Shown piece by piece: positions 57,043-60,083 of a stretch of DNA of 64,000 bases; within the stretch, counting starts at the first letter, position 1, and every line of letters begins with the position of its first letter. The stretch is taken from the NCBI GenBank assembly GCA_965211635.1, contig OZ242948.1, forward strand, positions 99,730-163,729, in the 5' to 3' direction. The stretch is from Dehalococcoidia bacterium (lineage in GTDB: Bacteria; Chloroflexota; Dehalococcoidia; Bin125). Under the pieces are notes generated by a model that saw nothing but the letters and a program-made list of their open reading frames with translations, ran no database searches and was not told the DNA's origin. Position numbers and translations under genes: made by a program.

Positions 57043-58551
57043 ATGTCCTCGATCGGTCAACTGAACCCCAGCCTGGACGAATTCAAACAGCTTGCCGCTG
57101 ATGCCCAGTCATCCGGACAGGGCAACTTTGCCGCGATCTATCGCGAGGTCCTGGCCGACCTGGAGACACCTGTCTCCGCCTTCCTCAAGGTCAAGCGAGG
57201 AGCGTACTCGTTCCTGCTCGAATCCGTGGAGGGCGGCGAACGTCCCAGCCGCTACTCCTTTATCGGCACCGAGCCGTACCGCGTGTATCGCGCGCCGTCG
57301 GGCGGCGATGTCGATCCGCTGACCGAGGTTGAGTCGGAGCTGAGCCGCTTCGATCTCGTTCCCAACTCCGACCTTCCGCCGTTTCACGGCGGCGCCGTGG
57401 GGTATGTCAGCTACGAGGCCATTCGGCACTTCGAGCCTCGGGTCCAGCCAGCCGATCATGATCCGCACGGTTTGCCCGAGGCGCTGTTCCAGTTCGTCGA
57501 CACGGTGTTGTTGTTCGATCACCTCAAACACGTGATCAAGGTGGTCACTCACGCTCGGCTCGACGGCGATGTCGAGTCCGCCTACCGCGCCGCCGAGTTC
57601 CGCATCAACGAGCTGGTCGAGCGGCTGCAGTCGGGACCGCCGATTCCGCCGCTCGACGCCTCCGAGCCGCCCGCCCACTCTGCCGCGATTCGTTCCAACA
57701 TGGAACGAGAGGCGTACTTCTCCGATGTCAAGCAGATCATCGACTACGTCGTTGCCGGCGACATCATCCAGTGCGTCTATTCGCAACGATTCTCACGCGA
57801 GACGTTTGTTCATCCGTTCAATGTCTACCGCACGCTGCGCACTGTGAATCCCTCGCCCTACACCTACTACCTGGAGATGGAGGATCACCAGATTGTCGGA
57901 ACATCACCCGAGTTGCTGGTGATCGTCGAGGACGGCAAGGTGTCGACCCACCCGATCGCCGGTACCAGGCGCCGTGGTCTCGACGACGAGGAGGACCGAG
58001 CGCTCGAAGCGGAACTGCGCGCTGACGAGAAAGAGGTCGCCGAGCACGTGATGCTGCTCGATCTGGGCCGCAACGATATTGGCCGCGTTGCCAGACCAGG
58101 AACAGTCAGAGTGACCCAGGAACTCGATGTCGAGCGCTACAGCCACGTCATGCACCTGGTCTCGCATGTCGAGGCCGAGCTCGCCGACGGCGCAACCGCG
58201 TACGACGCCGTGCGCGCAACGTTCCCCGCCGGCACCGTGTCCGGAGCTCCGAAAATCCGGGCGATGGAGATTATCTCGGAACTCGAAGAGGATCAGCGAG
58301 GGCCGTACGCGGGCGCCTTGGGCTACTTTGGTTTCGGCGGCAACATGGAGACGGCGATCACGATCCGCACGATCGTCATGCAGGACGGTGTCGCCTCAGT
58401 CCAGGCCGGTGGCGGGATCGTGTTCGACTCCAGGCCAACAGCCGAGTTCGAGGAGACCGTCAACAAGGCAATGGGCATGTTCACAGCGCTCGATCTCGCC
58501 GAAGAGCGCTCTCGCGCGACAGTCGCCAGTCAAGGTTCGCGAGGCTACTGA
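57043..58551 (+). CDS. trpE: Anthranilate synthase component I
   Basis: …SFLLESVEGGERPSRYSFIG… and a chorismate-binding C-terminus …GAPKIRAMEII…. Confidence 0.95.
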   Translation: MSSIGQLNPSLDEFKQLAADAQSSGQGNFAAIYREVLADLETPVSAFLKVKRGAYSFLLESVEGGERPSRYSFIGTEPYRVYRAPSGGDVDPLTEVESELSRFDLVPNSDLPPFHGGAVGYVSYEAIRHFEPRVQPADHDPHGLPEALFQFVDTVLLFDHLKHVIKVVTHARLDGDVESAYRAAEFRINELVERLQSGPPIPPLDASEPPAHSAAIRSNMEREAYFSDVKQIIDYVVAGDIIQCVYSQRFSRETFVHPFNVYRTLRTVNPSPYTYYLEMEDHQIVGTSPELLVIVEDGKVSTHPIAGTRRRGLDDEEDRALEAELRADEKEVAEHVMLLDLGRNDIGRVARPGTVRVTQELDVERYSHVMHLVSHVEAELADGATAYDAVRATFPAGTVSGAPKIRAMEIISELEEDQRGPYAGALGYFGFGGNMETAITIRTIVMQDGVASVQAGGGIVFDSRPTAEFEETVNKAMGMFTALDLAEERSRATVASQGSRGY

Positions 58552-59282
58552 TGCCGGAGTCATTGATCATCGGCTACGGCGTCGTGCTCGACGACGCCGA
58601 TCGTGTGCTGTTGCTGCGCCGACGATCCCACGAGGAGCTCTGGCCGGGCGTCTGGTGGCTGCCCGGAGACATCACCCCGCTTTCCGAGGAGCCGGACGAC
58701 ACCGTGCCCAGGATCTTCGAGCACCTCCTGAGGCAGCGGGTTCGCGCCGCCTACGCCCATACGGTCTACGGTCCGGAGCCGTCGAGCGGCAGGCACACAA
58801 TTCACAACGCTTACCTGGTCACGGTTGAGTCTGCGCTTGATGGAGCACCGCGGGACGAAACGAATCCCTTCGATGCGATGGAATGGTGGGACATCGACTC
58901 GGCCGTCTCGGAGCTGCCCGAGCAACAGGCTGAACTGCTCCAGACGGTCGTTGGAGGGATCCAGCAGGGGTGGGACTTCGAGGACGACACCAGCCTCGAC
59001 GATCTGTTCGCCGAACCCTCTCCTACGCCAACGGTTGCCTCGAATGTCACCGCGAAGTCGACTGTGGCGCTGTCGACGCGCGACACTGTGTTGGTGCGGT
59101 TGGCGGCGCGCGTCTCGGCGAGTAGCGCGCTTGGGATGGGACTCGACGTTCAAGAGGATCTGCAGGCCGCTCAATCACATGGCTGGACCCTCGCGGAGTT
59201 GGAGCAGGTTGGCAAGCTCGCCTCCGAGTTGGGACGCTCGGCAAGCCTAGACTGCGGGCCAACCAGCGACGACGAGAATTGA
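58551..59282 (+). CDS. Nudix-fold protein with degenerate Nudix box, embedded in the trp operon
   Basis: …GVVLDDADRVLLLRR…LWPGVWWLPGD…EEPDDTVPRIFEHLLRQ…. The Gx5Ex7REUxEExGU box is only partly retained (REUxEE becomes RIFEHL). Start overlaps the trpE stop (TGATG). Confidence 0.6.
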   Translation: MPESLIIGYGVVLDDADRVLLLRRRSHEELWPGVWWLPGDITPLSEEPDDTVPRIFEHLLRQRVRAAYAHTVYGPEPSSGRHTIHNAYLVTVESALDGAPRDETNPFDAMEWWDIDSAVSELPEQQAELLQTVVGGIQQGWDFEDDTSLDDLFAEPSPTPTVASNVTAKSTVALSTRDTVLVRLAARVSASSALGMGLDVQEDLQAAQSHGWTLAELEQVGKLASELGRSASLDCGPTSDDEN

Positions 59283-59291
59283 GGAATACAC

Positions 59292-60083
59292 ATGGCAACG
59301 CACGCGGAACGACGCCAGGCGGGTACCGAGCTGTTGGCCGAGATGACCGGCGCAGGCGCCGGCTTCGCCACGAATGCCGAGCAACGGACCGGCGCGTTTG
59401 GCAGCTACGTCGTCGACTACATCTTCGGCCAGGTCTGGCAGGGAGACGAACTCTCCCGCCGCGACCGCACGATCGTCGCGCTGGCGATGCTCGGAGCGCT
59501 TGAACGGCTCCAGGCGGTCCGATTCCATGCCAGTTTCGGACCGGCCAATGGGGTCTCGCGGGAGGAGATGACGGAGATCGCGCTCCAGATCGCCGGATAC
59601 TCCGGATTTCCTGCCGGCAACGAGATGATCAACGTGCTGATCGGCCTGTGGAGCGAGCAGGACGGCGAGCCGTATCGCATTCCCGCGGCCGAGTACAAAG
59701 ACGACGATCAACGGCACCGCGACGCCGTGGACGTGATGCGCACGCTCAACGCGCGCGAGGAGGCGCAGGATCCGGCCGAGGCGCTGGCAGCGATGGAGAG
59801 GATCGGGCCGGTTGGCAAGCTCGCCTTTGAGTTTGCCTTCGGCGACCTCTGGTCGCGCTCGCAGCTCTCGCGCCGCGACCGGTCCTTGGTGGTGGTCTCG
59901 ATTCTGGTTGCTCTGACCAAGCCCGATGAGCTGCAATTCCACATACCGGGCGCACTCAACCACGGCGTTACCGAGCGAGAGCTCGAGGGCGTAATGGCGA
60001 CGGCTGCGCCGTACTGCGGTTTCCCGCGTGCGGTCGAGGGTTTTCGCACCTTGCGTCGCATCCTGAGCGAACGAGAGTCGTAG
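59292..60083 (+). CDS. Carboxymuconolactone decarboxylase (CMD/AhpD-like) family protein, tandem two-domain
   Basis: Two repeats of …GxxxxSRRDRxxVxxxxL…ELxxHxxxALNxGVTxxEL…YxGFP…. RBS GAGGAA precedes the start. Confidence 0.75.
   Translation: MATHAERRQAGTELLAEMTGAGAGFATNAEQRTGAFGSYVVDYIFGQVWQGDELSRRDRTIVALAMLGALERLQAVRFHASFGPANGVSREEMTEIALQIAGYSGFPAGNEMINVLIGLWSEQDGEPYRIPAAEYKDDDQRHRDAVDVMRTLNAREEAQDPAEALAAMERIGPVGKLAFEFAFGDLWSRSQLSRRDRSLVVVSILVALTKPDELQFHIPGALNHGVTERELEGVMATAAPYCGFPRAVEGFRTLRRILSERES

Follow-up and report, generated by a model that had tools for sequence, protein, structure and literature searches.

Tryptophan operons serve as a textbook example of how genes are organised, and genes inserted into them have been left as curiosities. 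The question addressed here is what two such genes do between trpE and trpG, which encode the two subunits of anthranilate synthase, in a stretch of 64,000 nucleotides (nt) from a Dehalococcoidia bacterium (GenBank assembly GCA_965211635.1, contig OZ242948.1, forward-strand positions 99,730 to 163,729; the whole stretch is called the window, and coordinates are window positions). The two open reading frames (ORFs) appear in public records as 'hypothetical protein' or 'NUDIX hydrolase' (ORF-A) and as 'carboxymuconolactone decarboxylase family protein' or 'hypothetical protein' (ORF-B). Both are genuine, selected genes inside a compact trpE-to-trpB run, and comparison with related loci indicates that the pair is a local, reduced form of an old, variable accessory cassette that occupies the trpE/trpG slot of Dehalococcoidia.

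The trp enzymes flanking ORF-A and ORF-B were identified unambiguously using Pfam and NCBIfam models (Table 1). From trpE to trpB, junction spacing was −8 to +13 nt throughout, ORF-A and ORF-B included. The ORF-A start lies over the trpE stop (TGATG, 1-nt overlap), the ORF-A/ORF-B gap is 9 nt, with GAGGAA spanning the ORF-A stop codon, and the ORF-B/trpG gap is 13 nt and contains GGAGGG; trpG and trpD overlap by 8 nt (GTGCCTGA), and the remaining junctions are TAATG (trpD/trpC), ATGA (trpC/trpF) and GTGA (trpF/trpB). Shine-Dalgarno-like runs thus precede ORF-A (GAGG), ORF-B (GAGGAA) and trpG (GGAGGG). Because the starts of ORF-A and ORF-B overlap or abut the preceding stops, production of both proteins is probably coordinated with that of anthranilate synthase. 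A preliminary description of this DNA, made from the letters and a list of ORFs, had reported two non-trp genes in a compact, same-strand trp operon and had listed these junctions together with gaps of at most 14 nt; the ORF coordinates, the Pfam matches and the sequence itself bear it out.

A promoter or terminator between trpE and trpG, which the same description had named as counter-evidence, was not found. A consensus scan of 56000-64000 returned no sigma-70-like site, and none of the five terminator-like sites in that interval, a count at chance level (mean of 4.4 in shuffled sequence), was on the + strand between the two genes. No Rfam family matched 58400-60200, even at E ≤ 1. G+C content was flat across the region and, by codon position, was 0.68/0.47/0.78 in ORF-A, 0.70/0.47/0.81 in ORF-B and 0.67/0.43/0.78 in trpE, a native composition that matches the trp genes. 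Antisense ORFs at 58560-59174 and 59247-60125 were considered as real genes and rejected as shadow frames from their mirrored G+C pattern by codon position, homology and the ratio of nonsynonymous to synonymous substitution rates (dN/dS). ORF-A and ORF-B lie on the same strand as the trp genes, with neither room nor predicted signal for separate transcription and with junctions that are conserved across species. Co-expression with tryptophan synthesis, which had been proposed from the architecture, would be its natural reading, and is reinforced by the predicted Trp-type T-box leaders of the outgroup operons described below.

To define the family, ORF-A was searched against 5.8 billion proteins, profiles were searched against 1.84 billion representatives and loci were scanned in one genome per GTDB species. 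The first search gave 99 matches, of which those with a named source were from Chloroflexota metagenome-assembled genomes (MAGs). In the second, the Nudix-like family made up only 12-13 clusters, and the remote homologues of its Nudix-like domain were only ordinary Nudix proteins and Nudix+methyltransferase fusions. The locus scan found 48 loci with the family, all labelled Dehalococcoidia or Chloroflexota MAGs; the bin names of many of these genomes we take to denote sponge metagenomes, hence the term sponge-associated clade used here. Trp operon organisation in related genomes had been suggested as a check, and the trpE-A-B-trpG arrangement was present in 48 of 48 species-representative genomes that carry the family, which is more than chance. 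Gene order in every locus was tyrA-aroA-gmk-[gap]-trpE-A-B-trpG-trpD-trpC-trpF-trpB-Rce1-like-trpA-chorismate mutase-DAHP synthase (DAHP, 3-deoxy-D-arabino-heptulosonate 7-phosphate). Every Nudix-like copy with readable neighbours sat in the trpE/trpG slot and none was seen elsewhere. The trpE/ORF-A overlap TGATG was kept in 35 of 49 loci, and ORF-B overlapped trpG by 4-11 nt in most. Insertions or rearrangements were seen in the gmk/trpE gap of L002 (a methylase/HNH gene), L044 and L050, and none inside trpE..trpA.

Selection was estimated as dN/dS from 12 close pairs; identities are means to the window sequence. Values for ORF-B were 0.025-0.13 (identity 86.4%), beside 0.01-0.09 for TrpE (88.6%) and 0-0.13 for TrpG (84.8%). 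The Nudix domain of ORF-A gave 0.03-0.26 (71.1%), beside 0.08-0.19 for TrpC (75.4%), and the rest of ORF-A 0.06-0.52, with the tails of its short forms at 0.29-0.52. At about 0.05, ORF-B is as constrained as trpE, and at about 0.12 the Nudix domain, which was intact in all 47 loci that could be measured, is like trpC. Both genes are under purifying selection, ORF-B in the manner of a core pathway enzyme, and the ORF-A tail is the least constrained segment.

ORF-A scored narrowly above the Pfam NUDIX cut-off (25.1 versus 21.1 bits, amino acids 10-130), with a weak match to NUDIX_4. An AlphaFold2 (AF2) model made from 63 family sequences had a mean predicted local distance difference test score (pLDDT) of 87.9, with amino acids 155-170 disordered. 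When compared with the PDB using Foldseek, it matched DR1025, NudG/Orf135, MutT, BdRppH, the NrtR Nudix domain (3gz8) and IDI with probability 1.0, target-normalised template modelling (TM) scores of 0.53-0.76 and 12-24% identity. Profile and structure agree in placing it in the Nudix superfamily. The Nudix box, in contrast to RELREELG in the nearest canonical relatives, is G39-x6-E46-x7-R54-I-F-E-H-L-L-R-Q; in the alignment with those relatives, PGGEAEDDEDVDATLVRELREELG reads PGDITPLSEEPDDTVPRIFEHLLR in ORF-A. The three metal-binding helix glutamates are replaced by I55, H58 and L59, so the Nudix hydrolase signature GX5EX7REUXEEXGU with its helix glutamates is not matched. L59 is invariant in the 63 family sequences, and printed alignments have I/L/V at position 55 and H/Q/D at position 58. 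Invariant positions number 35, including E46, D49, H85 and E103, and at least 90% of the sequences have E47, H82, N86, Y88 and D102. That the fold had been kept and the REUxEE glutamates lost (RIFEHL) was already part of the preliminary description, and the model, Foldseek and the alignments agree. By its residues, ORF-A probably no longer hydrolyses nucleotides in the canonical Nudix way.

ORF-A resembles the NrtR effector domain and the MutY C-terminal domain in keeping the Nudix fold with degenerate glutamates and in its fusion to another module. Unlike these, at the low identities given above, it has no DNA-binding or glycosylase partner, the partner being a carboxymuconolactone decarboxylase (CMD) domain or, in outgroups, a methyltransferase. 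An NrtR-like sensor would combine a degenerate box with a fused winged helix; the ORF-A box is degenerate, but the fused part is a three-helix CMD remnant and not a winged helix-turn-helix.

That remnant had been overlooked earlier; the last third of ORF-A is not an extension of the Nudix fold. Compared using hhalign, the tail matches the second CMD domain of a longer form of ORF-A with a probability of 97% (E 8.5e-11). It comprises about 60 residues, with AF2 helices at 176-194, 201-209 and 214-234, and matches CMD only by profile-profile comparison. Two ORF-A architectures occur: a short form of 222-250 amino acids, like that in the window, and a long form of 390-430 amino acids, carried by most relatives, in which the Nudix-like domain is followed by two CMD domains. 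The CMD halves of the long form are collinear paralogues of ORF-B (half 1 to half 1, E 6e-41; half 2 to half 2, E 6.5e-29), are closer to it (43%) than to any other CMD protein examined and superpose on PDB 4g9q with a target-normalised TM score of 0.77. They have lost a His (to Asn/Asp) and a Tyr (to Cys/Phe), both of which are kept in ORF-B and in the gamma-CMD 2af7: the long form has FAFNASIG and ELEADIKTA in place of VRFHASFG and LQFHIPGA of ORF-B, and VECGFP and SAFCGMP in place of AGYSGFP and APYCGFP. From this paralogy and the lost His and Tyr, the long form is a fusion of two degenerate parts, a Nudix domain and a copy of the neighbouring ORF-B. Since at least two separate sub-clades contain short forms, and the C termini of these differ, the fused copy has been cut down more than once, and ORF-A of the window reads as one reduced form of a Nudix-CMD fusion, a fusion in decay. 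The fusion of the Nudix domain with an ORF-B copy, seen in most relatives, is evidence of the Rosetta-stone kind that both families may act together.

ORF-B matched Pfam CMD (PF02627) at 106.6 bits (cut-off 23) in two stretches and is a member of that family, as had been described from its two domains. Its halves (approximately amino acids 1-134 and 135-263) both keep the F-H and Y-x-G-F-P motifs, and its full length can be aligned with the tandem CMD structure 4g9q (E 5.5e-22) and the gamma-CMD 2af7. The suggestion that it is AhpD-like was not upheld: the AhpD family is defined by a CxxC catalytic motif and a His/Glu proton relay (PMC3141380), and CxxC is absent from ORF-B, from the CMD part of long-form ORF-A and from the outgroup CMD proteins. 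ORF-B shares with AhpD the all-helical CMD/AhpD-like fold family; CxxC is absent from it and from every relative in the slot, and ORF-B is gamma-CMD-like. PcaC was considered as well. ORF-B resembles PcaC and other tandem CMD proteins (PDB 4g9q, 2q0t, 2af7) in aligning over both halves and in keeping the His and Y-x-G-F-P; unlike PcaC, it scored 125.7 bits to TIGR02425, below the curated equivalog cut-off of 155.7, under which the CMD genes of the outgroup slot likewise fell (133.5 and 136.4 bits). No beta-ketoadipate genes (pcaB, pcaD, pcaHG) were seen in the gene tables and gene-order scans of related loci or among the scanned window proteins, a survey of loci and not of whole genomes; the gene-order scans of other related loci and the scanned window proteins contained only trp, aromatic and housekeeping genes. 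With a score below the PcaC cut-off and no CxxC, ORF-B is neither a demonstrable PcaC nor an AhpD-type peroxidase. Its nearest tandem CMD relatives elsewhere are 41-50% identical and lie outside trp operons; at three loci of such proteins from outside the group, no trp genes and no recurring neighbour were found. CMD proteins are commonly trimers and hexamers (PMC3141380).

The slot was also followed in outgroups, TrpE homologues just outside the clade within the same supraoperon, for which percentages are TrpE identity to the window. L054 (79%) carries a Nudix+S-adenosylmethionine (SAM)-methyltransferase fusion with the degenerate box RVLLQGLG; in L055 (77%) the slot is empty; L058 (76%) has a Nudix+methyltransferase with the canonical box RELQEELG, followed by two tandem CMD genes; L056 (74%) and L057 (71%) have one tandem CMD gene each; L075 (65%) has a P-loop kinase-like gene; and L076 (63%) has a Nudix+methyltransferase with the partly degenerate box RHTRRELG. 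L058 was found by a metagenome scan using a narrower Nudix alignment (one full-length relative), the broad alignment being too divergent to serve as a search pattern. For the methyltransferase, the only matches were to generic class I families (UbiE, ArsM, BioC, Tam-like), each far under its cut-off and none hinting at a substrate. The CMD proteins of the different lineages are 37-48% identical to ORF-B, no closer than proteobacterial tandem CMD proteins in unrelated contexts, so they are not simple orthologues of ORF-B; either two old CMD paralogues were differentially retained or the slot may have been refilled. The insertion between trpE and trpG that had been noted is therefore real, but it is not a one-off: what stands there is a reduced version of an older and variable cassette of relatives.

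Other inserts were seen in the same operons. One or two genes for Rce1/CPBP-like membrane proteases lie between trpB and trpA (L001 14424-15182; L002 14365-15186 and 15536-16426) in the related loci that extend to this region, among them outgroups with TrpE identity as low as 65% (L075). This second non-trp insertion again comes between the two genes of a two-subunit enzyme, and it is not visible in the window because the window ends inside trpB. In L076 an acetyltransferase gene follows trpB in place of the Rce1-like gene, and a DUF4268 gene lies between trpD and trpC (11617-12603), the trp operons of this class gathering varied inserts. In L075 (8513-9493 and 5979-7004), the kinase-like gene in the slot is accompanied by trpS directly 5′ of trpE.

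Leader regions differed between the clade and its outgroups. In all five nearer outgroups (L054-L058), a T-box motif (AGGGTGG[CT]ACCGCG) and a terminator hairpin lie 5′ of trpE; the L057 leader matched the Rfam T-box at 79.8 bits (E 8e-18), with the specifier read as UGG. The outgroup genes in the slot thus sit behind what is, by these matches, a tRNA-Trp-sensing leader. In the window neither a T-box nor another Rfam leader was found at gathering score or at E ≤ 10, and the sponge-associated clade is without a T-box. It has instead a conserved leader motif (Table 1), for which RNAalifold gave only a weak six-pair helix; since relatives have T-boxes at the equivalent place, the motif is something else, by which the clade has replaced its T-box. 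A promoter-like pair in the gmk/trpE gap, common to at least half of 36 sponge-clade leaders and a putative promoter, was missed by the consensus scan because its −10 hexamer matches only 3/6. A G+C-rich hairpin at 56737-56760 (GGCCCCCCAAGAGTGGGGGGGC), about 100 nt after the gmk stop and without a T run, may mark the end of the upstream unit. Within the aromatic gene cluster, gmk (56022-56630) overlaps the aroA stop by 14 nt; remA lies between aroA and gmk in outgroups and is not present there in the sponge-associated clade.

Table 1. Coordinates of the trp genes, ORF-A with its domains, ORF-B and leader elements in the window
Feature	Position	Strand	Description
Promoter-like pair TTGACA-N16-TAGGCT	56809..56836	+	gmk/trpE gap, ~205 nt 5′ of trpE start
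Conserved leader motif, ~53 nt	56917..56969	+	GCGTCC..GCGCA.TG.CACAC.TCGGGCGG.CA.GGGGTCTGGCGAGGCG; from alignments of sponge-associated clade
trpE, anthranilate synthase component I	57043..58551	+	502 amino acids; TIGR00564 537.7 bits (cut-off 517.7); Pfam Chorismate_bind and Anth_synt_I_N
ORF-A	58551..59282	+	243 amino acids; degenerate Nudix domain, linker, CMD remnant
Nudix-fold domain of ORF-A, amino acids 1-140	58551..58970	+	AF2 pLDDT ~88-98; Foldseek
Degenerate Nudix box of ORF-A, G39..Q62	58665..58736	+	GDITPLSEEPDDTVPRIFEHLLRQ; alignment with canonical relatives
Three-helix tail of ORF-A, amino acids 176-234	59076..59252	+	remnant of second CMD domain of long form
ORF-B	59292..60083	+	263 amino acids; intact tandem gamma-CMD-like protein
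trpG, glutamine amidotransferase subunit	60097..60705	+	202 amino acids; Pfam GATase 190.9 bits; TIGR00566 241.3 bits
trpD	60698..61762	+	GTG start within GTGCCTGA; Pfam Glycos_transf_3 and Glycos_trans_3N
trpC	61762..62547	+	Pfam IGPS 236.5 bits
trpF	62544..63227	+	Pfam PRAI 136.8 bits
trpB, truncated by window end	63224..64000	+	matched to homologues of related loci, which carry PALP; GTGA junction

Elsewhere in the window, a protein of 2186 amino acids composed of SWM_repeat and Big_5 domains is encoded at 28015-34575 (−). Interspersed with housekeeping genes (UvrB, FtsK, RNase J, a Mur ligase) are genes for a large serine recombinase (19208-20674, +) and a GmrSD-type restriction endonuclease (47471-49318, −). 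Class A RNase P RNA was found at 21440-21839 (+; 286 bits) and a tRNA gene at 51671-51744 (−). Because the Mur ligase ORF as called (21764-23650) runs into the RNase P RNA, the gene probably begins further downstream.

As possible roles of the pair, the preliminary description had proposed removal of a reactive side-product or a regulatory function. As to what the pair does, the reading that we tentatively favour, at somewhat less than an even chance, is that ORF-B is a working protein made with anthranilate synthase and ORF-A a non-hydrolytic, ligand-binding adaptor. ORF-B would be the working component, co-produced with anthranilate synthase when the operon is on, and would be a CMD-family enzyme whose substrate is a small carboxylated metabolite of importance while the pathway runs. 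ORF-A would be retained either as an adaptor that binds a ligand or as a regulatory partner, and would dock onto the ORF-B oligomer through its CMD-derived helices, like a dead paralogue partnering a live one. Pseudoenzyme or 'prozyme' pairs consist of enzymes and their dead paralogue partners. Like them, long-form ORF-A holds a collinear, faster-evolving copy of ORF-B that has lost the His and Tyr and is encoded beside it; unlike them, the window retains only the short remnant of the dead copy.

Several observations weigh against this reading. The clade is shallow (TrpE at least 82% identical), so some of the shared gene order is simply inherited. The CMD part of ORF-A was shortened at least twice and its remnant reaches a dN/dS of 0.52, which fits decay as well as docking, and the AF2 model of the long form defined no interface between its Nudix and CMD parts (low-confidence disordered linker, predicted TM score ~0.6). 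Which residues of gamma-CMD enzymes are catalytic has not been established (PMC3141380), so calling ORF-B 'intact' and the long-form copy 'dead' is a matter of conservation only. The content of the slot varies (empty in L055, Nudix+methyltransferase only in L054 and L076, kinase-like in L075), so the genes are dispensable for tryptophan synthesis; and because gmk, remA and Rce1-like genes are also embedded in the supraoperon, position alone is weak evidence of function.

The last two points lead to the explanation that competes best, which we consider somewhat less likely: that ORF-A and ORF-B are hitchhikers, unrelated to tryptophan, that were inserted at a permissive junction in a well-expressed operon and persist there by inheritance and promoter use. 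Genes of unknown function inside trp operons are on record, for example in trpF-trpB-X-trpA of Burkholderia, an insert for which Kagan et al. 2008 (PMC2395257) cite Xie et al. 2003, and between trpB and trpA of Flavobacterium, and they have been called possible 'morons' or helpers (PMC2395257). The present genes are like the Burkholderia inserts in being same-strand non-trp genes kept in an otherwise canonical trp operon, as is the Rce1-like trpB/trpA insert of relatives, and unlike the inserts of that report in their position between trpE and trpG, in their families (Nudix, CMD, methyltransferase) and in that domain swaps and decay can be traced; literature searches returned no description of genes of these three families in the trpE/trpG slot. 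The DUF4268 and acetyltransferase genes, like gmk, remA and the Rce1-like genes, are further genes embedded in aromatic or trp clusters, the slot can differ between lineages or be empty, and the closest tandem CMD proteins outside the group stand in unrelated contexts, all of which suits hitchhiking. What it fits poorly is that the slot repeatedly holds members of the same two or three families down to 63% TrpE identity, that the Nudix-like family was never seen elsewhere, that ORF-B is as constrained as TrpE, and that an insertion which splits the two subunit genes of one enzyme is kept with overlapping junctions.

A direct role in the enzyme is improbable. In this explanation the two proteins are accessory or regulatory subunits of anthranilate synthase, with the degenerate Nudix domain sensing a nucleotide-like or phosphoribosyl ligand, such as phosphoribosyl pyrophosphate (PRPP), and tuning TrpE/TrpG via the CMD scaffold. 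The location of the genes, with trpE and trpG as immediate neighbours and translational coupling to each, would be explained, and precedents exist for non-catalytic Nudix sensors, one of them, the NrtR Nudix domain, being among the structural matches; the tandem CMD-like fold of Sestrin2 is also reported to act in signalling (PMC4674687). Against these stand a TrpE that retains the usual LLES feedback region (read by eye), L055, which manages without the genes, and the canonical, presumably catalytic Nudix box of L058, which argues that the ancestral role was enzymatic.

Slightly more doubtful still is that ORF-A remains a hydrolase, or another enzyme, through alternative residues (E46 and D49, which are invariant, and E47, H82, H85 and D102/E103, nearly so), as in isopentenyl diphosphate (IPP) isomerase. 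The number of invariant positions would be accounted for, and ORF-A gave weak matches to IPP isomerase models and has IDI as a structural neighbour. Those matches, however, were far below the cut-off (17 versus 105.8 bits), none of the three helix glutamates is kept, hydrophobic residues having taken the place of two and the third position being variable, and H85, N86 and Y88 are shared with canonical relatives, which argues for inherited substrate or fold residues and no new site. It is very improbable that ORF-A is a dying relic heading for loss and only ORF-B matters, a view that would fit stepwise domain loss (the methyltransferase first, then most of the fused CMD copy, with truncation at least twice), the high dN/dS of the tail and two metagenomic copies that look frameshifted (P0075, P0099), but one opposed by a Nudix domain that is intact wherever measured, is constrained much like trpC and persists in at least 48 species although the catalytic glutamates are already degenerate in outgroups L054 and L076 too.

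One further reading is a long shot: the pair, and the older Nudix+methyltransferase/CMD cassette, could be a pathway-specific control or quality-control module of anthranilate synthesis, in which the Nudix domain would sense a nucleotide-like or phosphoribosyl metabolite and switch ORF-B or anthranilate synthase via the CMD-derived dock. In the sponge-associated clade, such a module may have taken over part of the lost T-box control. If true, tryptophan synthesis would be regulated at the protein level in a new way.

Whichever role applies, the insertion can be traced across a whole bacterial class, in which Nudix, methyltransferase and tandem CMD genes recur, swap partners, lose catalytic residues, shrink and stay selected. 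If the genes act on the pathway, they would mark a side reaction or a control point that has gone unrecognised in the conversion of chorismate to anthranilate and would give a first functional handle on uncharacterised tandem CMD proteins of the PDB 4g9q type. If they do not, the locus would be a clean example of operon position misleading function prediction, together with a documented Nudix pseudoenzyme.

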